Shown here piece after piece: positions 14,992 to 58,836 of a stretch of 64,000 nt of DNA. Origin of the DNA: Botryllus schlosseri (lineage: Eukaryota). Within the stretch, counting starts at the first letter, position 1. Each line of letters begins with the position of its first letter. The notes below the pieces were generated by a model. That model was not told the DNA's origin, did no database searches, and was given only the letters and a program-made list of their open reading frames with translations. The position numbers were made by a program, and so were the translations under genes. Location of the stretch: the NCBI GenBank assembly GCA_051294905.1, contig CM119371.1, positions 11,844,001-11,908,000 on the forward strand. The letters run 5' to 3'.

Positions 14992-15071
14992 AAGTAGAGG
15001 GAATTACATAATAAAAAATTCACTCTCATGTCAAACCAAAAACTAACAAAAATAATCAAAATAAACAGTAA

Positions 15072-18875: not shown

Positions 18876-18877
18876 AG

Positions 18878-18932
18878 CACTGGTCTTATTCGCGGTATCA
18901 CTGGACCAATGATCCGCTACTAATGGTTTAAA
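18878..18932 (-). promoter_or_regulatory. -1 programmed ribosomal frameshift signal (slippery heptamer plus predicted pseudoknot)
   Basis: U UUA AAC in gag frame two codons before the stop; pol is exactly the -1 frame and is open across the junction; 8-nt spacer then two compatible stems. Confidence 0.85.
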
Positions 18933-20404: not shown

Positions 20405-20641
20405 TGTGGAAGACCTCCTGATATAGTCGATGTAAAGAGATTCACAATAGTTTTTAGACAGCTTTATTTCCGCGTCCTCACGGCAGCCAGTTCAGACAAG
20501 AAGGGCATGCATTGTTATAGGTCCACCAAGTGTCCATTTAACGGAGTCGGAGCTAGACACTTGGCGGCCCTAGAAATAACAGTACCATCACAATAGTAAC
20601 TAACAATCATCACATACACCCATAATGGGTGGGCTGTCACA
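20405..20641 (-). repeat. 5' LTR (237 bp)
   Basis: Direct repeat of 14737-14974 with about 8 differences (manual count). Confidence 0.95.
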
Positions 20642-22364
20642 CTCTTACTGCAGTTAGGATTTTGCGGCATGCTGAAGATATGGAAATCGCCAACACATAC
20701 TAAACTAAAAGACGCACACGATTTCGAATTGGTATTCTTTTACTGGGAAATAATTTTCCCTGCGGGATGGCATTTGTTCTGTGGGGCTCAGATCGTCAGG
20801 ACAGGAACATTAGGCGCCAGCCAGACTTTTGGCGTCTATGGACAATTAACACGGACATGTAGGCTATATCGAGGTTTTCGGTCGGCACAAGGGCAGTCCT
20901 TTTCGACCAAGGTCTTCTCATCTCTGCTGATCGTTCTGGCACACTTCTCGGAGTCGCATGTTACATGGCCTATAACTTCGTATGTCGTGGCGCAGTAATG
21001 GCCGACGCCGGATTTCTATAAATCATGCGTATTTTTGTCGGGGGGAAGGGTACCCAATAATCATGATATTTGTGTCATTATTAAATCACGAAAAATTTTG
21101 AAAAAGTTGCATAAATTTCCAGAAAAGATCTCTATAATTTGTGTTATTTCACGAAGTAACTTTTGGCCCCCTTCGAGCTCCCCCTCCTCGATTGGGGGTT
21201 TGGGCTGCGGCCGTTACGGTCCTGCTGATAATTATATAATATTATCGATGCACCATCATTAAACCAAGGCTACAGCTGACACGAAGATCAAATGCTTGAC
21301 TGTGGTCAATAGCAGTAATTGTGTTTTGAATGTTTGTGCCTACTCGTAGCCTACTTTACGAGATATAGAATCTGTCTGTCGACAAAGCAATAATTCGAAA
21401 TTTACTTACGGTACTTACAGTGAATAGCATTATAACCGGTTTCTGCTGCTTAGTCTACAGCAGAATAAGCTGTGGAGAAGGCAGCATTTATTGCGTAGTG
21501 AAAAAGGGCGCAGTGCAATCGACACTTGGGGTAAATAGTAGTGAAGCTACAAATCATAGATAAATGTTTCTGAATTATATTGCGAATATAGTTTTCGCTA
21601 CTAATGCGGCCCTATAATAATAAGCCCTTATTTCAACACCAATGGTACACTCTTATTAACTAATCTTATATTAACTATAATCTAATAAGGTAAACTGAGC
21701 AAGCGTAAAGAAGTTTTTCGTGGCAATTAAGAGAGAAGTCAAGGGTATCAAACGAAGCCTGAAGGGCGGGTGTTTCGCACATTGCAATATCTGCAATTGT
21801 GACATTAACCTGGAGGCCATAGGAAAGATCGCTATTTCAACCCACTATGATACCAAAAAACACAAGAAGAGCGTCATAACGATTAATTCGAGCCAGTCGA
21901 TGAATAACTTACACAAGTCGATCAGCACCAACGACCATAGACTAGAAGGCAGCTGCTACAGAGGGTACCTTGTCATTCCATACTGTCAAACACCAGCAGT
22001 CATTCCTCACCAACGATTGCACATGCACATCGCAATTGCTCAAAGCAATATCCCTCGATTACAACATCGCAAAGAACTTTGCTTCGGTCACGACCAAGAC
22101 TGCAAACAATGTTACTGGAGTTCTTGCTTCATACGCTCGAAAATGATTTTGTATGAACTTGGTGTACACTGCAGACATGGGTTATCGCGATTAGTAATCG
22201 TAATCGATTACGGCGATTACAGCATTTTCTAGTAATCGTAATTGCAATCGATTACATACGAAAAAATTCCGAAGTAATCGTAATCGACTACTTCTGATAT
22301 CGAAGCGATTTCTTCGTGAAAGAACGATTACGTTTTATTTGTCCAATGACTATGATATTAACTG

Positions 22365-36486: not shown

Positions 36487-37598
36487 ATGAGCGTCAACGA
36501 AGAAAAGGAAAAACTATATTATATGGCTATCGCGATTCTTTCCGAAAGACGAAGCAAGGACCCCGTGAGACAGGTAAGCAGGCATGCAGAGAAACATTGC
36601 AAGTACCAGGGCAACGAATTAAAACGCTCGATTATATTATTAGTATCCCTATTCGCGACCCCCGTAATTCCCTTCATGTTTTTGCTGCCCACATTTGCTC
36701 CCTGTCTCGGACCACTCTAATTTAATGTGCAAATCGGCGGTTGCCAAACGGTTCACGCCGATTCTAGAAACACGTCCAGGGTGATTTTTCTGAACGACAA
36801 GCGGTCCTTCACCAATGAACACGAAATATCAAGTTTTTATGGTGTCAATGTAGCGGGTGTGAATTTTTTGCGGTTAACTCGGCTATGTTTGGTAGCGTTT
36901 TGTGACAACACAATCCTAATATCGCGAATAATATTCAACCAGTTCACATTCACATTCAACTCCCGAAAACGCTAGTCATAAAGTGAAATTACGGAAATAT
37001 GTAAGGTGTTATCTTTCACTGGTATCTCAATCCCCTTCATTTGAATCCCGAGCCATAAAGGCATCAGCAGCAACGAGGCGTTGGCAAGCTAGCAAAGATT
37101 GCGGCATCCGAGTACATGCACAGCGGCGCAATTGGAATTACAGCTAGGGAATGCAAATTCCTCATTCAAGAGTATTGTGATTCCAAATGGAAATCAGAGT
37201 TTTTCAGCAATATGGTGACCTCCATTTATTCAAGTTTGTTCCGAACCACGTGCTTCCATGCCCCGGCACTATCATCACCAAGATATAAGCCTACGCTATA
37301 CGTATTCGCTTGCAAACAGGACGTAGCGAAAGTTGTGGATACCAGAAACACTGGAACATTACGTCATTCCCTGCATCAAATATGAAGGCCCTCCACAATA
37401 TATACCGGACCAAATGAGAGACGCCATTCCTTTCCGGTTGGAAACATTACTTCTCACATCTTCTCACTGTGGTTACGTCATAGAATATTTTCTACTCAGT
37501 GGTCGATATTTTTAATAATATTTTACTTTTCTATTATTACTCTTATCATTGATCTGGTGCAAAAGACCATTAGAAGTCGAGCACCAAGATAAACCCAC

Positions 37599-37652
<54 letters not shown>

Positions 37653-40600
37653 GCAACAACAACAACAACAACAACCTAACCTATGGTCGATGAAGCCTTC
37701 GGATCACACTTACCTTTTCGGGTAATTTCTTCACTATCCTTCATGAATCCTATGCATAAACGGCGTTACGCGATTTACACGCAAGCCCAAATAGCTACGA
37801 AACAGTGTTTGGAAAAATCAGGGTGCAGTTATAGATCGAACTTTTCCTAGCGTTAGACATTCAATTTTCTTAATATTATCAGTGTGCATGAGTTTTTGAT
37901 GCTCTTTCGGTGCACTCGATCGGATGAACAGGTGGAACTAATGTCCATCAAATTTCAGGGCAAATAATTATACATCCTAAATCAGAGGTCTCAAACACGC
38001 GGCCCGCCAGAGCCTTTTGTGCGGCCCGCGACGGCATTTTGAAATTTCAAGTTATCAACAATATATTTAAGTGCCATACATCTTTTTTAGATATAAGAAC
38101 TTAAAGTTCACGCAAAAACTACTATAAAAATCACCGAAATCCCAACAAACATCACTATCACATCACTTTTAAAAGCTACCATGCGGTAGAAAATCAGCTA
38201 TTACGTCACATTTCTAGTTCATGATGATAAAACATGACCCGTTGATGATTCGCGACTGAAAATTGTGATTTGGTTTGGTGCGACCTTCTCGTAAAATTTC
38301 TTGAATTCGGATCAGTCTGGTAAAACGCTGAAATCGGAGAAGGACTTGCGACTCGGAATGGTGACTTGGTAATCCTACGGACGCATCAATCTATGCAACT
38401 TTCATGGGGAATAATAATATATCAAAAGGTCGTAGCTCGCGTTGCGTAGGATATATAGATATTTAATCTGGTACCTATGGCAACCATGGGTATTCTCAAA
38501 CCCCCGTGACGTATATAGTTGGTTAAATGATGCATGTTGTTTTTCTCTTCATCCATGTTATTATCGGTGACGAGTAAGGTGGTAGTACGCTCTACAGCGG
38601 TAACACCAACGAATTCTTCGTCGATTAAACATTTCTATTCGAGTGGTTCTTAACCAGGGTCCGTAGACCCCACCGGGGTACGAAGCACCACGTCAGGGAG
38701 TAGGAGATGCTTTGTAGAATTTGTATACCGATATGCCGTGGAATATTTTCTTGGCCAATTTATTCAACTAGAAAATAGTCTTCGCGCTGCGCGCGATTTT
38801 GTGAATGGGCTCTCTGATTTAGATAGGTACCATCCGAAATTGTGCATGAGCTACGAGAAATCTGATTGGAAGCACAAGGGGTACAATCACTAAAAAGTTG
38901 ATGAATCATTGCTATTATTATGGCTTAATAATGAGTGTAGTAAGGTTGTTATTGATATATCGAAGGCAAAATCTTACGCTTATTCAATTTGTGTTTGGCA
39001 ATGACAGTAACAATAGCCTATACTTACCATGACGATATCAAAACCATAGGATTAGGTTACACCGCTCAAAAGCTCTGATATCAGATCAATCATCAGTAGA
39101 TTTTAAAATAGACTACATAAAGTTGTTGCTCGTCATAGGTCCACTAGTTGCAATATTGTAACCCGACAATTTTACGATGTCATGATGCATCCTCTCACAT
39201 GATGTCTATACCTCGTTAATTAAAAAAAATCTGCCCGGCACAAAAACAATTTTATTCAAATATTTGAAAATGTGATTTTTTCCGTGTCAAGCGTTAATAG
39301 TACAACAGTAAATTACATTTCCACGATGTTTGTGGAAGGCCTGTCTGCAAGGTCCCGTCAAATAAGGCCATTAAATATCCCTATCATTGATGCTGCGGCC
39401 CGCGGCGTCATCAAAACTAGGAAATTGGCCCGCGAGCACATTTGAGTTTGAGACCTCTGCTCTAAAGGTTTCGTTTAGTTTTAGATTTGTAGGGTGTATG
39501 CTTTTTCCGCTTCTTTCCCTGCTATTCAATCGATCACGAACATGCATATATTTTTATGTTTTTTTTTATGTTTGCATCCTACGCTGTCAGTTCTGGCAGA
39601 TCTGTCAAATTTGTTACTTTCGCGGTAGGCCTACCCGGACGATCAAACTAGCGATACCGCTGAAAATTACATTTTTCCGGTACACAGCAAGAAAATAATG
39701 TAATGCGTGAATAGTGTTCTCCAAAAAATCCAAACAACATAGCGATAATCCCTCCCTCCCCTCCCCTCCCTCCCCTAAAACAAGTCAGATAACACACCCC
39801 GAACGCACTAGGTCTGTAAATTTGATCCAAGTCATTTCAGAAAAACTCACTTTTGGCGACTTTACCAAAATCAATAGCCTGAAAAACGAGACCCAGTGTA
39901 AATATTACTATTGTCGGCGGTCTTGCATTGGCGTAAGTGAAATAGTAAAGTACATCAAATTTAAACGACAGAATTAATAAAGCGATATATTTACATATTG
40001 TTTGGGAACCGTCGTGCTTGGCTAGGGTCGTTGAACTTCTAGCGCGCGCGCAAGACCTTGTGGCATAGATAACACTAAGATACAGCTAATTTATGGTATA
40101 GTTCTTTGTTATGCAAATCAGATATAATAGAACAATACATAAAATAGTTTAAATGATGTCATTACCAAAGGGGTTCCCAAATTTTTGTGGTCACGATCCC
40201 TGATTTCGATTTGAAAATACTCCACGACCCCACCTCTAATTTGGCGTGCTGATTACTAAAAAAATGGTCGGCATCTGCTCCAAAACCTACTCACGGTCTA
40301 TGGGGGAAGCTGTGGACGATGTTAGTCGTAAGAGCAATTATTCAATTATGAACTCGTCTACCTCCGTCTTTTTTGTTGATTATTTATTGATTGGTGATTA
40401 TAACGCAAGTGGTTTATTTGTTCGTCATAGCCAAAAATCCATTTAACATCTAGGGTGTGCAGGTGTGTATGTATTATATTGTTAACACATGGAACCACCA
40501 GTCATTTGTAGTTTTCCTAGAATGAAATATGAACGTCCTATCGATTTCTATGCTCTCGACACTTTAATCTTCATAGTGATGGCCAGACACAAACCATACT

Positions 40601-43600
40601 TTATAGTAGTTGCAAAAGTTGCAAAAACTTACCCTACTTATGTTACTCACCTCCTCTTTTACACGTCCTCTATCTAAAAGTTGGCTGCCCTGAATAATAT
40701 CAAATTTTACCAAAATGCCCAAAGAGCATCAGTAAACCTCCCTAATGACCTTTGAGTCAACGCCGTGAAATACCTAAATTGACCGTAAATTAAAAAAAAA
40801 ACATTGACATCGCTGGTCGGTTAATTTCTCACGTGGAAAATGTCAGATACCTCAGGGTTGTACTGGAATCCAACATGTTCAGAACGAACAGGGACGGGCA
40901 TTTTCTCCAGTTGGCGGGCCGGATATGGGAAAATGATGTACTTAGCGGTTCGGATTGCAATGACCACGTATTTATCAACTTATACAAGGAATAAATTGTA
41001 TTTAATGTAAACTTCAAGCGTAAAGTATAGAGACCAAAACAGTAGTCAATGAATTTATAGACGTAATTTACTTCAATAGCTGTTGAATTCAATGAGACAT
41101 ATGTGGTCGATCAAAGTACTTTGAACTCCGGCTGCGTGTTGGGCGTACAAACTAGGGATGGTGCGGGCGTGAGATGCACGTTCGCGTTCGCCTGAACCTC
41201 GGACATTTGGAGGTTCACGTTCGCTCACAAACCTTGGTAGGTTCTGCACTGTAAACTTTTTTCATCTGTTACAATTTTTCCCGTAATTATAACATTCTTG
41301 GTTACCAGTTTTACTGTGAATAAAGAATATACCAATAAATACCTCAAAAGGGAATGTGAGAAAATGTGGCGATGTCAAATAAACATGGGACAATCTCATG
41401 GGACATCAAAAAAATGCCAGGAAACGTTCGATATGATCCAGAAGATCACTTTATTGAGCACTTGGCATATTCTTCGGAAGACCTTGAATGCACCACTGGA
41501 CTAATTTACACCTGTACTCGAGAATGACAGCCTAATTTTTGTAATGTCGATTCTTCATTTTCAGGTATCTTTACCTCTGCAGCCTGCAGCCATTGAAAAT
41601 TTTTCATTCATCGCAATTCTGCAATTTGACATCTTCATGTATTGTACAGGAATAACAATTCGACTTGATTACTAAAATTTTAAAATTTTACTTCAATCTC
41701 ACCATTTTCCGTAGATGCCGCCCGAACTATATGTGTATTCACAAGTTTTAATGTGAATAAAGAATATGATAATAATAATAACTCTTCTACCCATGCTAAT
41801 TCTTCATCTACCACAATTCTGTAATCTGACTTCTTCATGTATTGCATAGGAATAACAATTCGACTTGATCACTGAAATCCTAAAAGTTTACTTCAATCTC
41901 CCATTTTGCTCAGGAAACCAATTGCTTCCCCGATTATTTTTGTATTTTACAAGTTTTACTGTGAATAAATACTATAATACATATAAATCTCGGAATCAAA
42001 AGCGCCTAAATACAATACACGAGTGTCCTCAATCCTCATATGGTCGACTTGCAAGATGATTGTTCTATCAAGTATACCAGAACTGCGAACGATATGTCGA
42101 CGACAATCCGACAGTTGACGAGCATATGTCTGCTGAATAAATATTAATCAGAGCTTGAGATGATGTGACCACGATTTGATATATCGACCTCGTCATCCAT
42201 CACATGCCACCTCATTCTGTCGTTTGTGCCATAATGCTATCTTCTATTACTTTTCATCCAGTGTGCATACTTCCTTTTTACTACACTAAGAACGAGGTGG
42301 GTGTCTGATTTCAAAGACTACTCCAAGTCGTTTCTCATTTGAAGGGTCTTCTATTTATGAATGCAAAGAAACGACTGAATGAAAAAACGACGTGTCTGTT
42401 GTGACAGAACAACCAGTAGAATAACGGTCGTTGTTACTTTTTCCACTCTTGCCCTGCAAGGAGATGCTACTGATTAGTGGGCATTGTCTATGGTAAGGCT
42501 GTGTCAATAGGCGCCTTTACGCAGACTTGTCATGTCTTTAGATTCTCAATAATTCGTTCGATAAGTTTCATATAATTTATGGGCTCCGACTTCAGGTTGG
42601 GGCGTGCATTGTTAATGAAAAGGAAAGAAGAATAATTGGCGTCGGCTACAACGGGATGCCGATAGGATGCCGTGATAACTTGATGCAATGGAGTGACAGA
42701 AGTGAAACAAATGAGAAAATGAAGCATTTGTATGGTAAGGAAAATGTTAGAAAGGTTTCATTACTGGTCCCAATCGAACACCAGCAACATGTCGCATGTG
42801 TAGCACGTCAGCGGATCCGGTCATTATAATGAACATTATTCGCTTAGCTCAGTGTTTCTTAAACTTTTTCGCATCGCGGACCACCAATTTGTTTTGACTA
42901 CACGGCGTACCACCTGAACTACTCATGTTAATGGAATCTACCGGTGTTTCTTAGTTATTCCTGTTAGTACTATACCGCTGCACCAATGGATAGCAAGAAA
43001 ACACCATTTAATGAGATGTTTGCGACTGTCTCTTATGCAGAAGGTCCTCGCCAATCAGAGGTGTGACATTACTCATGGAACTCTTCACGTATCACCTAAA
43101 AAGCTCTCGCGTGTCTCTAGTGGTACACGTACCACAGCTTGAGAACCACTGGCCTAGCTCAAATAGAGAGAACATAAAATCGCACAATCGCGGACTCCTC
43201 GCATCATTTCGCTCTTGCATCATTCGTGATGACATGTGATTCAGAATTTTTCCCATTAACTTGGACCATCCAAAATGCCAGTGTAATATGGTCCTCGTGG
43301 ATCCTAGGGAATTTACGCTGTCTCAGCCCCCAGCAGCTTGTCCATGTTTCACTGCGTGCATAATGCCGACTCAAATTATATTTCTTATCCTTGAATACAA
43401 TCTGCTGACTGCTGTACAGTCGAACAATTAGGGATAAAGCCTTGGATTACCTAGTTCGCATTGCCATCCATATCTAAACATCATCAACACGAGAAAAAAC
43501 ATCTCTTATCCGTTCATTATCATGAGCGGAGCCGCAGAGAATCCACAAAGGAATGAACTACCGGGAGCATAATATTTACTTTGTTGAATACCAAGTAAAT

Positions 43601-46600
43601 ATCTGCATTGTTGATGCTAAATCTGATCGACTTTTTTTCATCTCCCATCAGATATGGATACGCTGAATATACTAGACCACTAGTTAGGAAAACTATTATT
43701 CGAATCACATTTCAAAGACATGCAGATATTGCTTGATACATGTACTTACGTGATACTTACTTGACCCTTTCATATCATTTCATATCAATATAAATCAGTG
43801 GTTCTTCGACTTTTTACACTGCGACCCAAATGCGAGTTTATTCCGTGCCCCAAACCTCACGCATCGACATAAATGCGATTTTAATGTCCCTATGCTACGT
43901 ATTTACGGCGTTAAGCGGTACTAGAGATCTACTCTTTTTCAATTGCGAATAAAGTTGATTCATTTCTATAAATTATACGTATTCAAAACCAATATCGGAT
44001 GCGGTCGTTACGTCCACGCTCTATACCTCCATTTACCCTGCCCGAGTAGGCCTATTACCCGCGCAAGTTAGACCTTTCCTGGGAAACCAATGTCAGACAA
44101 TTCTTATCATGACATCAATTCAATTTGTGTAATACAAACGTCGACAAATTCCATGACCACTTCACTGTAGTAGTGACTTTTCTGCGTGTATCGTGTGTTG
44201 GCTATAGTACTCAACACAGTGACCTTACATATGTACCATTCAAGCACAGGATATCGCGCGAAGAGCGAAGAAATTTTGTTGTTGCAAGAAATGTAGCAAT
44301 CGCTTTGGGCGGTCGCGACCCACATTTATACCCTTCGCGGCCTATCTTTGGTTTTCGCCCCATACGTTAGGAACTTATGATTTAATTGATAGGACAGCAA
44401 TAAAATGTTTGAATTGGGCACATGCTATTTTTAGATGATGAGTGACATCACAGATTGTGCACGAAACAATTTCATAATACCACTCTTTTATGCGTTCTGT
44501 ACGGCTAAATCCATCACGTATATTACCCCTAGTTACACATGCTGAGATGAACGCAGTTGTGAATATGACTCCAAAATCTGTTGAGGGATGTTCCGTCTAT
44601 GTCACGTTGCACCCGTGCTATGAATGCGCAAAGATATTGCATCAGAGTGGTACGTATACTTCAACTATTCATTGATTTATTGATTCTTGAGACGGATAAG
44701 GTTATGCGGGGGTTGTGAGTGTATAGGCTACTTGACGATAAAAAATTATCTTTTCTTTCAAATGGGTCTCTTTCGTTGGCGTCAAGGATATGTAGGGCAA
44801 ATATAGTTTTGCTTTCTACATTTCATAGTCAATGAATATCCTTTTGATGTTACTGGTATTGGCCATTTCATTACGAACCTGTAACCCAGGTGCGTCAAAC
44901 TGAACTTGGTCCACCGGCCGGAGCAGCCAAATATTGACCAATCTTACCTCTAAATAGGCCTACATACCTTCATTTTTTAAAGGAATAGAAATTCTTTACT
45001 ATCAAGCATATAATAGCAGGCTATGCATTATATTACAGACCATATGGTAAGCCTTTATTTTCTCCATGTTTTTCCGTAGCTGCTGACTCGTAGCACGGCC
45101 TAGTTCTAGACTTTTATAAGACACCGCCTACACAGATGAGATGGTGAGGAGGAGCCTATAGATAAACCTCAAACACTTGGATAGGAATTTTGGAGTCGAC
45201 CTCGGTCTGACTCGGACCCTCAACCCATTGGTGTCGCAGCGGTGGATTATACTCCAGCGCCACGCACACATGATAGGTATATTGACCAAAGTTATGCATG
45301 TTGTTTGTGATGTTTTTTATGTAGCTGGACAAATCAAATAGGACGGCAGTTAAGAACATGCCGAAACTTTGAATCTGTAGGAATTAACCACGTCGAGAAC
45401 GTAAAGGAAAATTGAATCAAATAAATGAATTAGGAATTGACATGGGTGGCAATCGTTCAATACGTTGGAAAGGTTTGGAATGCATCGTGGAGTTTTTGAT
45501 GACTTAAAAATTGACTTGATTCATGAGTCAACCCCATAACTTACTGATCAAGATGCTGCTGGGCGCGCCCCCATTACGTTATCTTGTCTTGTCTTATCTT
45601 GTCTATTTTAATAATTCGCCTCTCTGTTTTCGTTTTCTTAACATCATGTTATGTAATCACAGCCTATCATTATGACGATTTTGTTTTACCTAAAAACGGC
45701 AGATTTTAACCACATTAGATGTTTTCACACATAATGTTAAAATTGTACTACTCATCTTCATTTCTGGTTGGACCTGTCTGTCCTTATGAAGTAATTTGGC
45801 CTGAAAAAACGTTTTTTACTTGAAAACGGACAAATGTTTACATGAAACAACTTGTATTTCAACGGAATCTGGACCTATGAAGAATTCCAGTAGTTACATC
45901 ATGCATTATGGTAGAAATAATTAGTATTTGTTGTGGTACAACAAAAGATGCATTCTCGGCTGGAAGTGTCTATTCTTTTCAAGTAGCTTGCCAAGCACGT
46001 AGAAAGAACGTTCAACAGCAAGAGGTATTGACTGGCAACACTGAAGTTTTGCGTACACTTCTGGTGACACACCGTATCGCTTCTTTCTGACAATGCTGTC
46101 TAAATCATAATTTTCATCCTGCGCTTCTTGATATAAGAATCAATTCCGAGGCAGTCTTGCCGCAGTTGGGATCTTACGGTACGTTGAGCATAACACCATG
46201 TCAACCTACATGTTTACTTGCTACCGATATTACACCATTATCAAGTTATACAGCAGTAGCCAACATCCTAATCGCACGGATTTAGTTTTTACGATACAAT
46301 AAACATATGAAATCAAGATTGACCCCGTGCGCGTGCTAGATTTTTTTACATCAGACAACGATATCAATTTCTTTGATTGGTTGAATAAGCATCATTCGAT
46401 GACTAAACCTACATGTAATATATTTCCCTTTGATGTTGTGTGATTGCGGTTCAAGCTCACAGCAGAGAGTCACTAAATATTCGCAAACGGAAAGCTTGGA
46501 TATTTCGAGTAAAACTTATGTAAGAAAGCAAGTAAAATTTTTGAGATTGGCATGGTGCATGCCCTTTTGCTATTCATTTTTTTAATGCTACCAGCGCTAT

Positions 46601-47423
46601 GAAGAGAGTGGTGCGAAGTTCTAATGTAAAGAATCTCATCCACAGATGTTAAAATGACGTGAAGATGGTAATCTATGAAAAAGGTTCACAGTGCAGAATC
46701 TTACAAGGTTCGTTTGTGAACGTGAACCTCTAAATTTATGAGGTCCACACACACAACGCGAACGACGAACGTGAACCTAACGTTCACACCATCCCTGGTA
46801 GGCTATTTACCAAATTGCGCTGGTCGGAGCACCTATCTATAGTTTTGTAAACAGTGAACCTGGAATGTAGTGAGTGTATAAGGACGATGAACCCAAGGTT
46901 CGCGTCGCCGTCTCTTCACAGCAGTCACGAACAATAATGCTTGGTTACTATTGACTTATGTAATCAGTAAGAAAATAAGTCGCCATATTTACGTTCAGAA
47001 CTGGCAGTGAACCAGTATGCATGATATTTATTGTATCGGAGATATTTTGTTTATCGGCACATGGTAATTACTTAATTAAGTTTCAATACCTTCCTCTATA
47101 ACTTAGCAGTATCATATTCAACCTGAAGTGATCGCTAGCAAACACTCATACATACCCTACATCCGATACGAAATCTAAAACATGCATTATACACAGGTAT
47201 AAGAAAAGTATTATACCTTTCGTACGATACGTGCTACCGGAGGAAAAAGGAGTTCCTTCACTCCAGGGAATTATTGAGCGAATTGAAAGATGATGGGCAG
47301 ATCGGATACGACCAACTATCTTGCAGTGGACCAGCGGTATCGCCCAATTGCACGTGTCAGATATGTGTTTTTGAAGTACTAAAATTTATCAATAATTTCA
47401 GCCTACTAAGTGCAAAATGCTGA
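36487..47423 (+). CDS. DCTD: dCMP deaminase-like unit 1 (catalytically intact)
   Basis: Exons 36487-36573 (YMAIAILSERRSKDPVRQ), 42596-42734 (VGACIVN...GVGYNGMPIGC...KHLY), 44533-44649 (VTHAEMNA...LHPCYECAKILHQS), 47197-47336 or 47423 (GIRKVLYL...). GT-AG introns in phases 0,1,1. The 3' end is uncertain: stop at 47421-47423 or a donor at 47337. Confidence 0.88.
36990..37675 (+). mobile_element. 5'-truncated I-group non-LTR retrotransposon in deaminase intron 1
   Basis: Degenerate RNase H end (FI*IPSHKGISSNEA..KLAK at about 37036-37097) and a 3' end finishing in a (CAA)n tail. Confidence 0.65.
37600..37675 (+). repeat. (CAA)n microsatellite, about 25 units, probable LINE tail
   Basis: Direct observation; one CAG interruption. 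Confidence 0.95.
37983..39459. mobile_element. Charlie/Buster-like hAT MITE with internal insertion
   Basis: CAGAGGTCTCAAAC / GTTTGAGACCTCTG TIRs; degenerate TSD tcctaaat/ctctaaag. Confidence 0.8.
42850..43151. mobile_element. hAT MITE
   Basis: CAGTGTTTCTTAAAC / GCTTGAGAACCACTG; TSD gcttagct/gcctagct. Confidence 0.85.
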
Positions 47424-48163
47424 AGCTTGTCTTTGATGGATCATTGGGGGATGCACATGAACACGCAAAATGGTTGCCGAACAGCAGGGAATATCAGTTA
47501 GGGTAGGTAGGAGATAAGATTGATAATATGAACTGTAAAGCTTACTTAAGATTTCACTGGCTGGATACATTATATCAGTGGTTCCCAATCTTTTTGGATG
47601 TCGGAGCCGCATTTCAGACTTCATAGCACGTATGCAGCCGCATGAAAACACTTTAATAGGCTATATTTATAACTAAAATTGAAATGTAGCTAGCCCCTAT
47701 CTGGATCTCACCTGCCAGCTAATTCTGAAGCATGCACATATACTTCTATAGATTCTATGTCGGTTATTTTAGCACTGATAGACGCATATTGGCGAGTTCT
47801 ACGCATTAAAATAAACTGAAAATGCATAGCATTACTACAACATACTATTATGCCTTTATGTGATAGCTCTTCATACATTCCAGCTCTTAATGCACAAATT
47901 TACGGTAGACTATATGAGCCGTTATTTTGATGTTAGTAAAATTGTGTCGAAATTTGCTCTTCACAGATACAATATATAAAGGTCCTTGACCAGCAGAACT
48001 CTAGATATATCCTTGACTGACGAGTATTCAGTATTCAACCAAACGCTTGACGCTAGTCTGACAGAATTCTCTTTCTCGGTTTTCAGAAGCGGTCTTGGAC
48101 GGCTCTAGACATAAATAATATCCCACATTTTAGCATTCATATACATAAATTGACTATAACTAT

Positions 48164-49133
48164 TAGGGATGGTGTGAACCTCTGAAAGGTTCAGGTTCGT
48201 GTGAACGCGAACCTTTTTGAAAGGTTCTGTGTGAACGCGAACGTAAACCTCATGACGTCATGTGGCGCCAGATTGCTAATTTCAACCCTATATTTCAATG
48301 AAGTGATAGCCTATATTAATGTACACGATACCTAGCGACGACTCGGGCCACATAATGCCACAATGCTGAAGTACATATTGACGTTTTAAAAGTCGCTAAA
48401 TGTATCAACTGTGGCAATCAAATGATATATTAATCCCATAAAATCAATATCTTCCGTCGCATTGCCAACAATTTCGACGAGGACTTGACAGCGAATATAA
48501 GCTTATTAACGGTCTAGGCCAGACCGGACAATGTATTCGGCGTCTGAGTGTTGCTATACATGGATAATGAGCAGAGTGTACAACGGGTTTCTATACTTGC
48601 TACCGATATTACCCCATTAATAAGTTATACAGCAGTAGCAAACACCCCAATAGATCGGATTTTGTTTTTATGATACATTAAGATTGACCCTGTACGCCTG
48701 CTAGATTTTTACATCAGAAAACGTTATAAATCTCACTGATTGGTTGAATAAGCATCATTCGCTGACTACATGTAGTGTATTTCGCTCTTGATGTTGTGTG
48801 ATTGCGGGTCAAGCTCACAGCAGAGAGTCATTAAATATTCCGAAACGGAAAGCTGGATATTTCGAGCAAACTTTTCTAACAAATCAAGTAACATTTTTGA
48901 GATTGTCAAGGTGCATGCTCGTTTAGTGTTGATTGTTTATGCTGCCAGCGCCATGCCGCAGTTGAAATGCAATAAATTTGAACCGAAGATGTTATAATGA
49001 AGTGGAAATTGTAATGTAAGAAAAAGGTTCACACTGCAGAACCTACCTAGATTCTGTTGTGAACGCGAACCTCAAAATTTCCGAGGTTCACACACAGAAC
49101 GCGAACGTGAACCGCACGTTCACACCATCCCTG
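48164..49133 (+). mobile_element. GTGAAC-rich hAT MITE nested in an older MITE (47576-49261)
   Basis: TAGGGATGGTGTGAAC / GTTCACACCATCCCTG TIRs; fragments of the same family at about 2730-3164, 10610-10880, 11770-12366, 41153-41270 and 46190-46797. Confidence 0.85.
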
Positions 49134-50820
49134 AACTATTCATAGATATAAACAACAACTGTCGTCTATTATATTTTCGTGGCATATTTAGAGGTTAATC
49201 AGAGCCGCAAGGCTACCCTGGAGACGCATGAGGCTGCGAGAGCAGCAGTTGGGAATCACTGTCATACGTACATATACTGATTCATTATCATTGTCACTGA
49301 CGTTTTTTGTTATGACTACCGCATAGTTGCCGCTACAGCTGATATCCCCTCGCACAGTGGTTCTCAATCGAAGATCCTAGGCACCTAGGCACTCCGAGGG
49401 TTTGTCGAGCCTGTCTCAACGGCTTCGATGGTGATAAAAACACACACTCATATCAAGGCCTACATGTGATTTATGATGACACGCCCATCTTTCACGGCTT
49501 AGATACCAATGACCAAGAAGATGTCAATTAAGCGGATGCTATTGGCGACTCATTTCTGAATGTTTTAGTTTATTTTTCAAAAGGAAGGAAAAACTAAGGC
49601 GAACCAGCAAACACTAAAACGAAAGGTTCGTGACTGGTCATTAGTGTGAAGATCAAAGTGTCGGGAGTATAGAACCCAATAGCACGGTTATATTCCCTTC
49701 TGGGAAAATTACAAGTGAACGGTAGTGCTATGTGTTAATAATATATTCCATACACAGGACACACGTAATAATTACGTAAATAAACACGTCGTAATCAGTA
49801 AACCAAATTGAGAGATGGGGTTGCGACCATAAACAGTTTGGGAACCCCTGGCTTGCAGCATACATTGTCGTAAAACTATTAAAAATAATCTATCAGCAAT
49901 GTCACAGAGTTCAGTTCTCATAAAACCGACCCTATTGTGTGATTTAAATCAAACGAATATCGCTTATATAACTCGTCAATGATTGGAGAAGGCTCATATT
50001 GTATCTTATGGATATATAGCAGACTAGTGTATTGCAACATATCATTATATTATACTTTCTGAGGATTCTTATTCTATTCGCTACTTTGGCTGATGATTAT
50101 GTGTCTATACAGTTATCTACATAGTTTAGCAGTTCAATGTATGCGTTTGCGATACAACGCCTTTTTGCGTGTTTATCAAACTTTATATTCGTTCTTTGGG
50201 TCATACTTAATGGGTATTCAAACTTCATTTGAAACAGCTAACAACATGCAATGATATTTAATCACGGCTCGTACTTCGTAAATTCAACACAGCTTGACTA
50301 GTGACTTGATTCGTGACTTGACGTGACTTGTATCGAGTCATCTCCAGAAATCGAGTGACTTGACTTGACTCGAGTCAAAATGTACAATGACTCGAGATGA
50401 CTCGAACGTAGTGACATGATTCCAATACTGAGTCGAGCATCCTTCAATATTACGCTATGACAGTATAAATCAGGGATTCCTCAAGTATGGGTCGCGATCC
50501 AAACATGGGTCGCAAAGGGTATAATTGTGGGTCGCGACGGCGTCATAACGATCTACGTTATTGTTTGACATTTGTATTACGCAAACTGAATTGAATTCTT
50601 GATAATATTTGCCCGACATTGGTCTCTTTGAAAAACACCGTCGGAGACCGTTGGGATGCTTTAGTGTGGCAGTGTGCAGCGAGTGGGTACGGAAATATGA
50701 TGAAAAAGTGTTTCGAAGCCAACCCCCTTCATGACATTAAAAAGCGTTCGACTGTCTCGATGACGCCGCATTCGTCGCACATCGGAGAGTCCGAGCAGCC
50801 AATTCTGAATAAATGAGACG

Positions 50821-51201
50821 CTACTGCAGCATAGTGTCCTGACCGTAGTCGAAATATAAGGCGTTCGATATGGCGACTGCAGTTTGTATCTGGTGGTGTA
50901 GTAATTGCGCTGTGGAATAGCTTGTAGCGTGATCCCCGTGTATCGGCAAAATACTCGCAGGCAGGATGTCTTGGGTAACCTTCTTCATTGCGACTGTGGC
51001 GTCCGGTACGGTAATGATTGGAGTTTGGCTCGATTGATCTTGCGTCGACGAGCTTGCTCGTGCTAATTCGTCAGCCTTTTCGTTACCTGAAATTCCTGCG
51101 TGTCTTGGAACCCAGGAAAAACCAACAATGATGCCCGCGTGGTGGATCTGTTTAAATATTTCCATTATGAAAACAATGAAGTTGTTTGATGGTCGGCTCA
51201 C
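50821..51201 (-). mobile_element. Non-LTR retrotransposon RNase H fragment (I-group)
   Basis: FSWVPRHAGISGNEKADELAR motif. Confidence 0.8.
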
Positions 51202-51896
51202 ACGCGTAGAACTCTCACAGTGGGTAATAGAGACTATGATTCGCGTTGATGAATTAACTATTACTTAGAAGCTAAGTGTGTATAATTTTGGTACCCGAAA
51301 GAGTCATCTCTCCCTATACTGAACTTGAATGATTACACCATGTAACAAAATTTTGCAAAAGTTTTAGTTGACTGAAATTTTTTGTGTATTGTGTTTTAGT
51401 ATTCCAAACTACTTACCAAAATACCAAAATTTTCCTGTATTGTCCCAAATTTTGAAGAAATGTCAATTTCTCTAATTTTTGATTTTACGTATAATTGCTC
51501 CGTATTAATCACAATAATTCTTTACTGGACGTATGAAAACGCTTGTGAAAAGGATAATATGAACAAATATAGCTTACTCCTGCATCATCAAGTAACAACG
51601 CGAACACTTTAGAAATCGTCAGAAGTGGTTTTGTTTGCGTGACTTGCGTCTGTGAAATGAGAAATCTTCGCTGACTATGGACCAAAAATAACACGTTGTA
51701 AAAAAATTTTGCGAAATTTTAATTGAGTAAAATTTTTTATGTGTTGTGTTTTGCTATTCCAAACCAATCATTAAAAGACAAAAATTTATTCTGAATTGTC
51801 CCTAGTCTATAAGAAATTTTACTTTTTCTGATTTCTCGTTTTACTCAAAATTACCATGCAATAATCCGCATAATTCCTTATTTGACGTACAAACAC

Positions 51897-52755
51897 CAGT
51901 GTGGGGATGACTCGAGTCATGACCTTTTTTGTGTGATTTGACTTGACTCGAGGCACTTTGCTAAAATGACTTGACCTGACTTGACTCGGCGTATCAGAAA
52001 TGTTGATTGACTCGTGGCTCGGAGCAAAATTCACGAGTCAATTTCAAGTCATCAAGTAATCGGCGTCGATAAAAATCCCTGCATCTTGCATATGTTCGGA
52101 TTGTTCGCGAAACGATGGTGTCACCCGTGAGAGCGACCAATCGTGCGTTTTACAGAGCCTCCATTGTTCTCTCACAAATAAATTGATTGCAAAACGAAGT
52201 GATCGAAGCTTACAAGCTTACGTTGTCGCAAACTAGTAAAGTCAAGTAATTTCTGTTCTCTGTTTCACCTTAACCAAACCTCTTGTTTATTGAAATTGAA
52301 TTCGAATATAGTTTGTTTAGTCCTCAACCTTTGGCGCAGGCTCGAATTGTATCATATCGATTTGTAAATTAGTAATGTATTGCATCCTATCAATTCGTAT
52401 CTATTCTCTATTTTGGCCGGTAATTAAACTCAGGTTTAGCAGTTCTACGTATAGGTGAGCGATACAGCGGTTCAAAATCAATGACCAATCAATCTGTATC
52501 TCAGACAGCTAGCAAAATGCAATGATGCTATCATGCCTCATACTTCGAAAAGGCAACTTGACTTGAATTATGACTTGACTCGTGACTTGACTTGACTTGA
52601 CTCGACTTGACTCGAGTCACCTCTAAAAATCGAGTGACTTGACTTGACTCGAGTCACCTTTGAATATCGATTGACTTGACTTGACTCTAGTCAAAATGTT
52701 CAATGACTCGAAATGACTCGTGACTCGAAGGTATAGTGACTTGATCCCAACACTG
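51897..52755 (-). mobile_element. hAT MITE of the same family as 3290-3758
   Basis: CAGTGTGGGGAT / ATCCCAACACTG TIRs, perfect TSD acaaacac; TGACT repeats. Confidence 0.9.
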
Positions 52756-52799
52756 ACAAACACACTAACAAAAAGAAGGAATGTGCACAAATGTTGGCT

Positions 52800-53350
52800 A
52801 CCATAGATTATAAAAAGATGGAAACAATTCCAAAAATTTCTGCTGGTATTATGAACCGCAAATAACCGCCCATAATGCTACTTCAGCACCCTTAGTATCT
52901 TCTTTCCAAATCATACATATCCTGCTGAAGCACGTCACTATATGTTCCTCGCTTACATCATCCATACTTGACCTAACAAAATCAAGTTGACAGTTCAGAT
53001 AATGCCCCGTCCACTTTATTTTTTCGTATGTCTCGATCATATTGTTCCAAGAAAATTTTCAACTACATCTAGAAATGCCTTGAATGCTTTTGCTTCTCTC
53101 CCAGTCATTTTATTGTCAAGTGCTTTAAAAAAGATTGCCAACATTCCCGCATAAGCAAGGAGAACCTGCCACAGTTATTCTGAACCTTGGAATGTCATCC
53201 ATACAGATATAAAAGTCATCTATAGAGTTTCGAGTAGCAAATTACATTGAATGCCGATCTCCCCTTAGCCATCCATCCATATTTCATCGGCATGTTTCGA
53301 AGATTACATGAAATGCCCAGTTTTTATCTTTATCTCCAATTTTCATGCCA
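52800..53350 (-). mobile_element. Old Chapaev-type transposase remnant
   Basis: Degenerate KAFKAFLDVVENFLG and QQDMYDLERRY*GC*SSIMGGY, same motif family as 3170-4550; boundaries approximate. Confidence 0.55.
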
Positions 53351-54123
53351 AAGTAAAGTTAATAAGTATGAAAAACCTTACTTCTAGATATATTTGTACT
53401 TTAACTTGATTCAACCTGATATGGAGATCACAGATATATAGCACAAACAGCTAGCAGGCAGATAACATTTGTGATGTTGATATTAATGATGAGATTATAT
53501 TCACTAGATCCACAATCAGTGCATTAACAGAACAAAACGAAAATGAAAATGAATATGAGATTGCTTGCTGTAGCCAATACTGACTAACCGAGACTGAGAA
53601 GATGATTGCTACTAACAACCAAATATTATGAGTTGAATGATGGAACAATTTGACGTCACACTTAATAGAAAATTCAATAAAGGAGCTTGAAAATCATGGT
53701 ACGGGAAGTTTAAGAAGCGTAAAATGACAATTTTAAAGGACACTAATGGAAAAAATGCCGGAAGTAAGTTTTATCAATGGATATTATGTAAGAAATATCC
53801 AAAAATCAGCTCAATAAATTTTTGTTACATGGTGTTATATGGGATTCAGATTCAAGAATTCCACTCATCGTGCCCATCCCTATTGAGCTGATATCAAATG
53901 ATGTCACGAAATTATCGGGAAATTGAAATAATCGTAATTATCGTCAGATTATGCATTTTTATCCGATCAAGACACAGACGGTGTACAATGCGATACATAT
54001 GACGATGATGCGATGTGATGAGCAGATATTTGAATGACGAAATGGCCAGCAATGGTCTCTTAATATGGCATCCACCGCGGTGTACGACCAGATGTAAATT
54101 GTTTGATGTTATTCTCTAGCCAG

Positions 54124-57100
54124 AAATTTGATGCGAAGGAGATGGAAGTATTGGAAAGTAAGAAAGAACTCACGGACCAGGAATACTCTCGCCGCGAGAG
54201 AGTACAAGCTAGGTTGGAAAAATCGAAGAAGTTATTCACACCTATTTCTTGGGAACAATATTTCATGGGCATGGCGATTGTTTCTGGACACCTGATGGCT
54301 GACAATCCCCCATCGACCGTGAAGGTTAATATTTTAGGCGAGAGTATCAAATAATCTGGTTCATCGCTGTTTCTGTTTCAGGAGGGGGCTTGCATTGCTA
54401 ACGAAGACAACAGAATTGTGGGATTAGGATATTTCCGTTTCGAGCAAGTCGAACGCGGAAATAAAAAAACTCGGATAGGTATCCAGCTGTAGCAATTGGC
54501 AATTATAAGCTGAAATAAACCCGGAAAACGGGAGTCCGAACCCGACGATAAGTCTGGAACTCGATTTGAGACCGATTCGCACCAGAAATTAGTATTAAAT
54601 ACCAGACATAACGAAATTTGAAAAACCTGTTCAATGTATTACCAGAAACTTTTCGAGCTAGCACTCGTCGGGCGTTACCGTCTGCTCTAATTGGGGCTGG
54701 GCATATATTGATTCGAGTACTCGAATCTGAATCGAGTAATGATTTTAATGACTCGAGTCGAGTAGTACAAGACGATTTTTTCGAGTACTGAAATTATACG
54801 CTCCTCGCCACTGAAAGTTATTTACCGATGAGAATTATAGTTTCTGTGCCAGTTTCCACTGTGCAAGCCTTGAAACCTTAATGGCCAGAGCGCAGCATAC
54901 GAAACATATAGCACAAAGCTACGAATTTAACTGGAAATAACACATTTCCGAAGTCCTGTACATCCCACAACATTTTCATAAAGTGTAATGAAATCGACAT
55001 GGTCGAAAAAATACCAAAGTATCTTTAATGTGACGGATAACAGGCATTGTATTCTTTCGGGTGGCAAGAAAGGTACGTAATAGAACTTTGACATCTTCCA
55101 TTCTGTTTTGACGTCATAACGAGTGATACTCGAATACAGGACTCGACCCGAAGCATAACACATGATTCAGAATCGAATCACTCGGTTTTGCCCAGCCCGA
55201 GTTCTATTGCGACCATTCAAAACTTTGCTTACAGGGGCACTGCACTATAAAAATGATGTGGTCCCAAATTGAAGGGCAAAACGAAATAAAAATTTTGGCC
55301 ACAGCCGTTTCTTCAGAACGCCGCCGTAACATAATGGAGCTGCAATGGATTGAAATTTCCACATTAGCTTCACGCTCCAGCAGTCACGCAGAGGTCAAAC
55401 TTTATATAGTTGTCAGCAGAGATGGCCACAGTCCGGTTCAGGAGCCGGAGCCGGAGCAGGATTTTGATGAATTTTACTGTGGCCGGATCGGAGCCGGATT
55501 CTGAAACTGTCATATGAGCCGGATTTAAACAGGATTTGATATTCATAACAAATATTGGGTGATAAAGGTTCAAGATATCTTATATTCAGTGAAAAACGCT
55601 GCTTCGATATTATTTCCGTAGTTAAATGCATTCATTGCTATGGATCAAGCCCAGGCTGGTTCCGACAATAAATGACAACGTTGAGACCGCTGATACCGGT
55701 CACGTCGTTGAAATGCGTAAGCAACATAAGTAAAGTTTCTGCAATGATGAGATGACTGCTGGTTGAGCTTGAGATGAGGACGAAGGCAGGCTCCAGCAAG
55801 CGAGCTGCAGAACAGTTTGTTCCTCAGATATTGATTCTTATACTTCCTGTTCATCAGCCATTAGGGTACTTGATATCAGTTGTCAGGATGACAGAGAAGC
55901 GAGGTATCGGTATTGTTGCAGAATGCAGAGGTAACTGGTGGTTCTGATTTCTGATGTCATTTGGAATGATTGTGTGATGGTATGGTAATGTATGAATATA
56001 TGCTGGCATGGTCAATTGGTCATGTTTATGATTTTAGGAACACACTAGAACTGAAGTACCACCGGTATACTCTATGATTGATGGTGCACATCATCATTCA
56101 TCATGCTGATTATATAATATTATATATATTTCCTATTCATTGCTGCTCTATAAAGTGATCATTTTGATTGATTCATCCATTTTGTTTGATACATGTCTGT
56201 TCTGTGAAAATATAGTTCCAATCTTCAGTAGTACTATAGGCCTAGTTGTCTTGGCCAAGTCACAATGCACAATATCTGATTTTGTTGCTGGCATCATGGC
56301 ATGCCTGAGTTACTATGTTTACCCTCTCCGTAAAGCAACTAATATTGCTTTCTCTGTTCTCACAGTCTTTTAAGCTCATTTCCCCTGCCTAGTTCCTACT
56401 ACTCGCATTTATATTAAAGATACATACCAAACCTAACATTATTGATTCGAAATGTGATATAAATAAACCCTTGTAACGCATTACTTGATACTAATTTGTT
56501 GATTATAATGTTCATATCTGTTTTGCAGGCTATATTTAATGTGAAATAGCACTAAAGCAATAGCAGGATTTTTTCGGATCCTAATTTTGATGCTCAACTG
56601 TCGGACTCCGAAATCCTATTTGACTGTCGGATCAGGACGGATACGGATTCCCAAAATCTGGAATCCGCCCATCTCTGGTTGTCAGCCGATGTTATGAAGG
56701 AAATATCTCGTACACGCCAATGTGCTTTAGATACCGCGTTCAACGTAAGATGTCCACTCAGGAGATTTATGTCAAAATCAGGCCCAGTGTATTCTATTTC
56801 CTTCATAACATCGGCTGACAACTACATAAAGTTAGATCTCTGCGTGACTGCTGGAGCGTGAAGCCGCTGTGGAAATTTCAATACATTGCAGCTCCTTACG
56901 GTGGCGTTCTGAAGAAACGGCTGCGGCCATCATTTTTTATTTCGTTTTGCCCTTCAATTTGAGACCACATCATTTTTAGAGTGCATTGCCCCTTTAACAA
57001 CAATCTGAATAGTTTAATACGGCGGCACACAGAGCAAATTGCAGAATTCAAAATACGAGAGTGACATGGTGCAGGCACGAACAGAAAAAAGGTAATGTGC

Positions 57101-58836
57101 GATTCTCAAATGATACACAATTTCTTTCTGTTAGTATAGAAGGAAATGTCATGAATCCGTACCTATCGATAGAACCGCCACATAACTGAAAACCCGATGT
57201 TTCAGCGGTGATGTGCGATTTCGTCATTGTTTCTAACATTAAAGAAATAGACAAGGTCCACACCTGAAGATTGTGCAGTTTGTATAGAAATATTAAATTA
57301 GTTCAATAGCCTAGTCGGTTACCCGAAACGCGGTTTATTAGTCTTTGCAGAATCTTAATGCGCAATCATTTTCGCAAAATGCTACTTGCGCCACCTATGT
57401 ATGCACACTGAAGTAAAATCCTAGTATAGGCTACTATATTGACTGATAGCCCGTGGATATCGATCAGGCCACTAAATTGTAATTGCCAAGACCATTGCCC
57501 ACGACATAAAAAGCGATTGTAACGTGTGCAGGTGTATTATAACTGTCACAAATTATAAGTCAAATAATCAACAGAGATAACATAATGGTCGGTGGCGTGC
57601 GATTAATCTTCGTTTCGATTTCCACTCTCGAGCAAGAACACGTTCTGAAACTGAAAATACCGGCTCGAACATGTTGGGATCGTTATATGGGATATTTCCT
57701 AAATTTGTCAAGTATCGTGAATGTTTCTAACATCCAGACAAACAATGCACTATCAACCCATGATATATGATATATATATTTCCAGATCAGCATGCACCAG
57801 TCGCCGCAATTGTAAACACGAATCCCGTTTCTGTACGGGATTGCACTCTGTACGTCAGTTGTTTCCCATGCAATGAATGCGCCAAAGTTATTGTGCAGTC
57901 AGGTGAGATCGATGGTACTGAATCACAGATATCGAAAGGTGTCAGAGCTTCTTATAATAAATTCGTTCGAGGAAACCATGCTTAACTAATTTGCTCACTT
58001 CATTCGGAACAGCTGTTCTCCTGGGAAATGCGAATGACGTGGTAAGGTAGGCACAGGTGATGGATTACATTTCAATTGAATCGCTACCTTTGTATTGGTT
58101 CATCAACCTGAGAAATTGAAGAAAAGCGGAGGGAAATATAGAGTGAAAATATATCAATTTGTAGTTAAAATCGCAAATTTCGATAATGCTATGGTTGCGA
58201 TTCGACCATCGGCGACAAAATTGCATCCTAGCAGGATTGTCGTCCTTGTGGTCATGGGAAAAGTATAGATTTATTCAAAATCAAAACCAAGACCCTTTGA
58301 ATTCACTGCACACACATTTTGGGTTCGATTTAACCTACCTTGGGAACCACTAGTGCGTCTTAACAGAAACCGTTCATTTAGCTGTCAATCAATCGCTCAA
58401 ATTAAATTTTCAAGTGCATGTAATAAATTTCCGATACATGATATGGTGTCCTACAAACTAGTTTGCATCGGTAAATGGATAAAATATTTTCATCAATATA
58501 TAAATATTCATTCTCTTCCGTGTATTGTCCTGTTTACTATTTTCTCCAGGAATAAAGGCTGTTGTGTACATGGAAAAACAAGATCAGGCACATGCGAATC
58601 AAAAAGGATGCAGCAGGCACCAGGATGAAGTCAATGTTCAGAGACAAGAGCAAGCAAGTCAAAACGGATGCGCCAGGCAACATGATGATGTGAATCGTCG
58701 TTATTTTGATCGGGGCATTAGTAGGCCAGATCCTACCAAAAAAATGTTCAATTTGGCGAAAGTGAGAGTCGTGTCGTACAGAGACTGCTATGAAACCAGT
58801 CCAGTATTTCTGGATTTCTCGGAGTCTCCTCTGTGA
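54124..58836 (+). CDS. dCMP deaminase-like unit 2 (pseudo-catalytic, HAP instead of HAE)
   Basis: Exons 54120/54124-54324 (ISWEQYFMGMAIV...TVK), 54382-54478 (EGACIANEDNRIVGLGY), 57786-57902 (QHAPVAA...FPCNECAKVIVQS), 58550-58836 (GIKAVVYM...VFLDFSESPL*). GT-AG introns in phases 0,1,1, with no stops or frameshifts. The 5' end is uncertain. Confidence 0.85.
54692..55200. mobile_element. hAT-like MITE in an intron of deaminase unit 2
   Basis: GGGCTGGGCA / TGCCCAGCCC termini; degenerate TSD gctctaat/gttctatt. Confidence 0.7.
55233..56993. mobile_element. Foldback MITE (Kolobok-like, TTAA-flanked) interrupted by an hAT MITE at 55417-56677
   Basis: AGGGGCA...TGCCCCT|TTAA ends with ~200-bp inverted arms. 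The inner element CAGAGATGG / CCATCTCTG has perfect TSD gttgtcag. A partial copy of the arm lies at about 2580-2708. Confidence 0.8.

Follow-up and report, generated by a model that had tools for sequence, protein, structure and literature searches.

A 64,000-nucleotide stretch of the Botryllus schlosseri genome (contig CM119371.1, positions 11,844,001 to 11,908,000; G000:C1:11844001-11908000, within a 495-Mb genome of 219 contigs; hereafter the window) carries an expressed nine-exon gene that encodes a single chain of two domains related to the dCMP deaminase DCTD. The first domain has an intact zinc site and the catalytic glutamate of such enzymes; the second retains the zinc ligands and has proline in place of that glutamate. 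We suggest that the product is an enzyme-pseudoenzyme fusion which, by analogy, probably works like the vertebrate (d)CTP deaminase CDADC1 in design, as a trimer of two-domain chains rebuilding the DCTD hexamer, with the order of the two domains reversed.

The exons, all on the forward strand, join into a 429-residue chain without a stop, and every internal splice site is AG/GT. The coding part of exon 1 (36487-36573) gives helix 1 of domain 1 with RSKDP (at 36550) and Arg28, is without the N-terminal Trp motif, and has a homologous exon in three paralogues. Exon 2 (42596-42734) has, on sequence, VGAC (42596), GYNG-MP (GYNG at 42644) and the domain 1 cap loop, and the 117-nt exon 3 (44533-44649; PF00383, 37 bits) holds the intact zinc site, HAE (44538-44546, residue 78) and PCYEC (44613, residue 103). 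Strand 4, the LSxDxCY loop, helix 4 and strand 5 of domain 1 follow in exon 4 (47197-47336), which has RNA junctions on both sides, and the last strand of the domain and the start of the linker in the 101-nt exon 5 (47402-47502), which aligns with the C-terminal strand of the single-domain DCTD of this genome on contig C7. Exon 6 (54120-54324) encodes a charged linker and helix 1 of domain 2 (ISWEQYF, with WEQYF at 54250; RSKDP lost). Exon 7 (54382-54478) has EGAC, with Glu264 (54382-54384) where DCTD has Val, and GYFR (54427), the Asn and the cap loop being lost, and the 117-nt exon 8 (57786-57902; PF00383, 33 bits) has HAP (57791-57799, residue 298), with Pro for the catalytic Glu, and PCNEC (57866, residue 323), the zinc ligands retained. 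The coding part of exon 9, whose start we corrected to 58550, runs to 58836 and supplies strand 4, a variable insert, helix 4, strand 5, a conserved CY..LDF tail and the stop; its 3' untranslated part (58837-59235) extends to the contig ends at 59235 and 59221. An earlier note on this DNA, made from the letters by a model, had read the region as two DCTD-like units; the motifs, zinc ligands, HAP and WxxYF lie where it put them, as do the AG/GT splice sites and the open frame. With a reading frame that stays open for 429 codons and a structure that recurs in four paralogues, the gene model is not a product of chance.

Transcripts confirm most of the model. Four sequencing runs were aligned to 42300-59300, with exon 1 outside the aligned span; the junctions described are from the 15 of 97 listed, and about 6 in 100 of the raw RNA reads of run X23 were used. 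Two contigs, one each from X1 and X2 (two studies), were taken to be RNA by guess. Raw X23 reads join 44649 to 47197 (4 reads), 47336 to 47402 (2 reads), 47502 to 54120 (16 reads with 9 starts, the most among the listed exon junctions), 54324 to 54382 (2 reads) and 57902 to 58550 (13 reads with 9 starts), all as GT..AG junctions. These are also in both contigs, and the junction of 54478 with 57786 is in the X1 and X2 contigs only; the exon 2-3 junction is not among the 15 of 97 listed. The span that begins with exon 3 and ends at 59235 has 1463 nt in the model and takes up positions 1-1464 of the X1 contig, and one contig reaches 274 letters 5' of exon 3, a length that would match exon 2 (139), exon 1 (87) and 48 letters of untranslated sequence. 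A single-cell run (X21, 3 in 100 read) gave no exon junctions and was not used as evidence. Both units are one expressed gene coding for one chain, in which exons 1, 2 and 3 are presumably linked as modelled. The earlier note had left open a hetero-oligomer or a single chain, and it is the single chain that is borne out, by the 47502-54120 junction and the 429-residue frame; a two-gene heteromer is without support. Likewise, the donor at 47336 that it proposed is used, but it joins the overlooked exon at 47402-47502, which in turn joins 54120 (phase 2) and not 54124; the proposed 47336-54124 junction would drop the exon with the last strand of domain 1. No junction from a donor at 53763 is among those listed, which leaves a first exon of unit 2's own unsupported.

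Pfam searches of the genome gave 13 matches, which correspond to the window gene, a copy on contig C11, three copies on C6, the C7 DCTD and three further loci that we take, from their motifs, to be ADAT2-, ADAT3- and CDA-like (candidate ADAT2/ADAT3 on C6 and C13). From DNA alone, C11, C6a and C6c were modelled as open nine-exon genes of 408, 440 and 519 residues, with C6 linker exons that are candidates chosen by phase and mutual likeness; each of the five copies has a phase-2 acceptor and a linker exon, the latter being such a candidate on C6. In C6b (G000:C6:4789098-4796457) exons 4-9 are open and constrained, and the 29 kb upstream yielded no exons 1-3, so that this copy may be a recent truncation, a gene for a dead-domain-only protein, or an alternative 3' cassette spliced from C6a exon 3, 51 kb upstream.

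The second domain has lost what catalysis requires in a manner common to the whole family. All five copies have HAP at the catalytic position, with the Pro codon written CCA, CCG, CCT, CCA and CCG, and all five have lost the Asn of GYNG, the Pro, the cap loop and the Asn of the NA motif, only GY being kept of these marks; RSKDP is gone along with the catalytic Glu. The PCxxC zinc ligands are present in all nine domains of both kinds, and domain 2 retains helix 1, strand 2 and helices 2-3, with 64 invariant residues, as well as the N-terminal Trp motif in four of five copies. Over all aligned domain-2 codons, dN/dS is 0.12-0.44 in 10 of 10 paralogue pairs; it is 0.06-0.25 for the HAP exon and 0.08-0.25 for the HAE exon (5 of 6 pairs computable). 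Values of 0.09-0.23 on hand-picked core blocks are biased low, and the unselected ones are preferred. No change at the HAP codon was present among the 40 of 769 difference rows listed. Since the third letter of the Pro codon varies between copies and Glu to Pro needs two changes, HAP is neither an error nor decay, and Pro in five of five C-terminal domains across three codons, together with these dN/dS values, places the dead half under selection. Unit 2 is thus both transcribed and under purifying selection, as the earlier note's reading of it called for. We infer that domain 2 is catalytically dead and was retained as a structural partner.

The first domain, by comparison, is complete. All four full copies keep RSKDP, GYNG, PCxxC and HAE with its catalytic Glu, and exon 2 matches human DCTD (PDB 2W4L) with E 7e-10. 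DCTD-clade proteins are marked by G(Y/W)NG, NxxP, NA after HxE and a Tyr between strand 4 and helix 4 (Table 1 of PMC3239186), and domain 1 matches these marks at G46-Y47-N48-G49, P51, N82-A83 and Y128, invariant in four of four copies. It is without the N-terminal Trp motif in all four. On its motifs, domain 1 would be a zinc-dependent cytidine-nucleotide deaminase. As its preferred substrate, dCMP is the foremost candidate, though it falls a little short of being probable; dCTP/CTP is less likely, and a modified cytidine nucleotide or another compound slightly less likely again. A basic triphosphate patch after strand 4 was considered as a family trait and rejected, since each of the four first domains has 9-10 Lys plus Arg residues and the C7 DCTD has 9. 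CY motifs at C127 (exon 4) and C414 (exon 9) are invariant in all five copies, the second also in database protein P0200, and are absent at those places in the C7 DCTD.

The family descends from DCTD itself. The separate canonical DCTD gene that the earlier note proposed searching for was found on C7, and it has the three intron positions common to both units, with phase 0 before xGAC, phase 1 before HAx and phase 1 after QS, a match between the units that had been described correctly. The central exon is 117 nt in both units and in C7; it had been called identical in the two units, which holds for its length and not for its sequence, 65 of 117 letters being shared. The C7 exon shares 72 letters with unit 1 and 63 with unit 2, and the C7 protein is 53% identical to domain 1 (131 residues) and 38% to domain 2 (142 residues). 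As C7 DCTD shares the introns and the 117-nt exon, both units arose from an intron-bearing DCTD gene by genomic duplication, as had been proposed. The first domains make up one starred clade and the second domains another, and the two branch alike internally (100/100 and 99/99, both starred); this likeness indicates that whole genes were duplicated after the fusion, so that fusion and inactivation precede the expansion.

The Botryllus chain has the fold, zinc ligands and three intron positions of DCTD (human, 2W4L; C7 gene), but DCTD forms homohexamers of single-domain subunits, all six sites being live, whereas here there are two domains, one of them without the catalytic Glu, and in domain 1 the N-terminal Trp motif is missing and LHPC and LSxDxCY stand where DCTD has LFPC and SDK. 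The closer parallel in design is CDADC1 (NYD-SP15; PDB 9HFQ/9HFR/9HFS), a vertebrate (d)CTP deaminase according to PMC12088426 and PMC12184417. Both have two DCTD-like domains per chain and occur alongside DCTD, and in both the dead domain keeps the zinc ligands and has lost the Glu, the allosteric motif and the cap loop. The order is reversed in four of four full Botryllus copies, as the earlier note had it; the dead motif is HAP rather than HAG, the linker is shorter, and there are five copies against one. Domain 1 is about 30% identical to CDADC1-like proteins as against 53% to DCTD, and CDADC1-like domains form their own starred clades without Botryllus domains. Given the reversed order and the failure of most of the CDADC1 triphosphate lysines to map, we did not file the family as CDADC1.

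In CDADC1, as reported in PMC12088426, helix 1 and strand 2 join the domains within a chain and helices 2-3 join chains; the six domains of the trimer correspond to the DCTD hexamer, and the dead domain lacks the allosteric motif. Domain 2 of the Botryllus protein keeps helix 1, strand 2 and helices 2-3, the two interfaces of CDADC1, which makes the parallel close. By this analogy the two domains would pack back to back within one chain, and three chains would assemble into a ring equivalent to the hexamer of DCTD, in which live and dead sites number three each, mirroring CDADC1 with the domain order reversed. The Trp motif, lost in domain 1 and kept in domain 2, would be a complementary loss of the kind expected of an alternating ring. 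The fusion probably removes or rewires the dCTP/dTTP feedback, and would so free the enzyme from the housekeeping role of the C7 gene.

No full-length copy of the spliced 429-residue protein was found in the databases, so a Palaemon protein of the same domain order, P0051, was folded as a stand-in. Its model (19-row alignment) has pLDDT 82.6 and pTM 0.82 and superposes on the full CDADC1 protomer with Z 25.7 and rmsd 2.4 A over 259 residues (Foldseek TM 0.63). This predicted structure supports the protomer geometry for such fusions generally, not for the Botryllus protein.

Several observations weigh against this proposal. The stand-in comes from a different phylum, and the solved DCTD hexamers may be reflected in its geometry. 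Among the CDADC1 triphosphate lysines (K337, K392, K423, K450 and K452), only K392 maps by alignment to a Lys, which ordinary DCTD also has; the K337 and K423 equivalents are not kept, with Arg and His one position along, and K450/K452 could not be mapped confidently. Domain 1 retains GYNG, so feedback may persist, though CDADC1 keeps this motif unused. The dN/dS values compare paralogues, and for pairs on different chromosomes the synonymous sites approach saturation (pS up to 0.74); profile searches of protein databases found no orthologue of the domain 2 catalytic exon. Finally, the invariant Glu264 on the pocket floor could be catalytic.

A further role may be added to the proposed fusion, that of an immune effector: an unregulated dCTP/dCMP deaminase draining or poisoning nucleotide pools in viral infection, for which there is a bacterial precedent in DcdV/AvcD (10.1101/2021.03.31.437871). 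Five copies beside a housekeeping gene, with a tandem cluster and a truncated copy, and long branches as against the short C7 branch are consistent with it, as are Arg28 and His102, which in four of four first domains adjoin the phosphate-binding K337/T338 and K423 of CDADC1. Exon 4 is variable as well: between transcript contigs and the assembly 8 of its 140 letters differ, beside 7 of 204 in exon 6 and 2 of 689 in the last exon, and three listed exon 4 differences alter residues 126 and 130, in the loop after strand 4, with both alleles present in run X23. However, dN/dS exceeds 1 in no pair, the exon 4 excess over other coding exons is marginal (p 0.04), and CDADC1 is not induced by chronic infection according to PMC12088426. 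We consider this role unlikely, although worth keeping in view. The wider proposal, that the family is a second, independent CDADC1-like invention, an unregulated (d)CTP deaminase expanded and polymorphic for antiviral nucleotide depletion, and that crustacean, insect, oyster and tardigrade tandem fusions are a widespread overlooked class of animal effectors, seems more doubtful still.

Alternatively, the protein might chiefly regulate the housekeeping DCTD through mixed rings, or domain 2 might be an allosteric nucleotide sensor and not a scaffold. Both ring interfaces are kept, domain 2 still has the Trp helix and the allosteric motif's GY, and C6b could give a dead-domain-only protein, but domain 1 is intact in all four full copies and domain 2 has lost the allosteric Asn-Gly, which makes a regulator or sensor improbable. 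Less probable again is a live domain 2 in which Glu264, on strand 1, replaces the HxE glutamate as a migrated catalytic residue and serves a different substrate. Glu264 is invariant in five of five second domains (GAG/GAA), it stands where DCTD has Val and where CDADC1 has V340, which forms the pocket floor, and the zinc ligands are intact; among other listed domains only P0067 has Glu there, and P0067 is without the zinc His. Against such a migration, the substrate-binding Asn, RSKDP and the cap loop are gone, and a Glu on the floor is more likely a fourth zinc ligand, like E157, which comes from another loop in the CDADC1 dead domain. We therefore read Glu264 as a pocket plug, a migrated catalyst being less likely. 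That the units are two adjacent genes, one active and the other a decaying or separately expressed duplicate linked by occasional read-through, has become scarcely credible and is largely refuted: a strong donor at 53763 with upstream ATGs, a phase-0 AG at 54122-54123 and the listing of 15 of 97 junctions leave it some room, but the bridging junction has the most reads (16) of the exon junctions listed, the exon 4 donor is used, exon 5 has no stop, the phase-2 acceptor and linker exon recur in every copy, and domain 2 is constrained.

Returning to the enzyme-pseudoenzyme fusion, why a CDADC1-type enzyme evolved is left open in the discussion of PMC12088426 and in PMC12184417. A mirror-image design still near DCTD is a natural experiment in which the changes can be read. 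Should this family, like CDADC1, prefer dCTP and ignore dTTP, fusion with a dead domain would be a way in which regulated housekeeping hexamers can repeatedly acquire a new activity; should the protein be a plain dCMP deaminase, it would still illustrate cleanly how complementary losses turn a homo-hexamer into an obligate alternating ring.

Fusions of this kind have been found in various animals, with live and dead domains in every combination. A profile of the HAP exon run against 1.84 billion representatives gave 2425 matches, of which the best 150 were used, a ranking that favours multi-domain proteins. Among these 150, plus one protein from another search, 44 were multi-domain. Of the 41 with two domains, 17 look live-live, 14 dead-live and 7 live-dead, and 3 are unclear, where dead means that His, Glu or a Cys is missing and some entries may be annotation errors; three of the live-dead proteins are named as crustacean. 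The 20 that were looked up include amphipod, shrimp and crab (live-dead), wasp, aphid, beetle, thrips, oyster and tardigrade, and CDADC1-like proteins of a chytrid and a shark. The architecture is accordingly less rare than the earlier note supposed, the same order being present in 7 of the 41 listed. Proteins with a live N-terminal and dead C-terminal domain include KAF2346335.1 (Trinorchestia), XP_068216149.1 (Palaemon), XP_050689529.1 (Eriocheir) and Logan P0061 and P0078, and Pro stands at the Glu position also in P0042 (HVP) and P0061 (HSP). However, the crustacean and Logan tandem proteins reach at most about 35% identity over two domains, and no starred branch joins them to the Botryllus family.

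No HAP protein was seen among 37 HAP-exon profile matches or in the best 150 of 2425, and an exon-4 profile found none among 1397 candidates, both weak blanks. The last-exon profile found one protein in 7999 candidates, P0200, which is 56% like the C11 copy and so probably comes from a related genome. ESM Atlas gave one uninformative match, at 0.75, with the last exon, and a weak search with the chytrid query showed no CDADC1 orthologue.

Trees were built of 91 rows, leaving out fragments and isoforms, and of 40 rows, with named and least divergent rows plus CDADC1-like proteins; 39 of 88 and 19 of 37 inner branches are open, the bootstrap being unsettled. AU tests did not reject domains 1 and 2 as one clade (p 0.12) or domain 1 with CDADC1-like active domains (p 0.18; references chytrid and shark, not human). 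In one tree domain 2 grouped with the dead domain of the Trinorchestia protein (92, unstarred), but this did not hold in the other. The domains of an aphid protein (100), a beetle protein (99) and P0056 (97) are starred sisters within one chain, and such pairs in several proteins indicate that tandem fusion arose repeatedly. The nearness to DCTD and the shared introns favour an origin for the Botryllus family separate from CDADC1 and from the crustacean fusions.

Active and inactive deaminase domains also cooperate in ADAT2/ADAT3 and in double-domain APOBEC3 proteins, which act on nucleic acids. ADAT2 and ADAT3 are two separate TadA-like genes whose products form a heterodimer, whereas the Botryllus protein is one chain closest to DCTD, and APOBEC3G reaches a TM of only about 0.26 with the P0051 model. 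In the full-text literature searched (subscription papers lay outside it), CDADC1 is the sole described two-domain relative of DCTD, and no tunicate or crustacean family was found, although the supplements of PMC3239186 may list some. PMC5889660 treats AID/APOBEC and not such fusions, and nothing relevant was found in PMC10733785. According to a supplement of PMC12088426, some invertebrates, cnidarians among them, have CDADC1-like proteins. The family is undescribed in the literature searched, yet it is one case of a recurring pattern.

Other proteins in the survey have further arrangements. P0133/P0201 (XP_067907191.1, Heterodontus) is a four-domain CDADC1-like protein with HAV, HAE, HAV and CAE, a doubled CDADC1-type unit. 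P0003 (MetaClust) and P0050 have five DCTD-like domains, in which dead domains (HAA, PDEDC, with RSKDP and GYN kept) alternate with live ones (HAE, RSKDP lost), a division of motifs that mirrors that of the Botryllus family. The domains of P0165 (KAJ3382862.1, Lobulomyces), named CDADC1, group with shark CDADC1-like domains at 99/99 and 100/99, both starred, on long branches, which fits badly with a vertebrate-only origin of CDADC1.

Within the gene, intron 1 contains an (ACA)26 microsatellite (37599-37675) and intron 5 a retroelement RNase H fragment on the minus strand (50821-51264), the rest of that intron being high-copy repeats. A gene with a fibrinogen C-terminal domain (PF00147, E 1.7e-16) has its last exon 25 kb upstream, on the minus strand at 11201-11542. 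Also on the minus strand, at about 14850-20650, is a Ty3/gypsy-type LTR element with an open gag (523 residues, zinc knuckle) and an open pol frame of 1297 residues (protease, RT, RNase H and integrase); its near-identical flanking repeats, near 14880 and 20550, make it look young.

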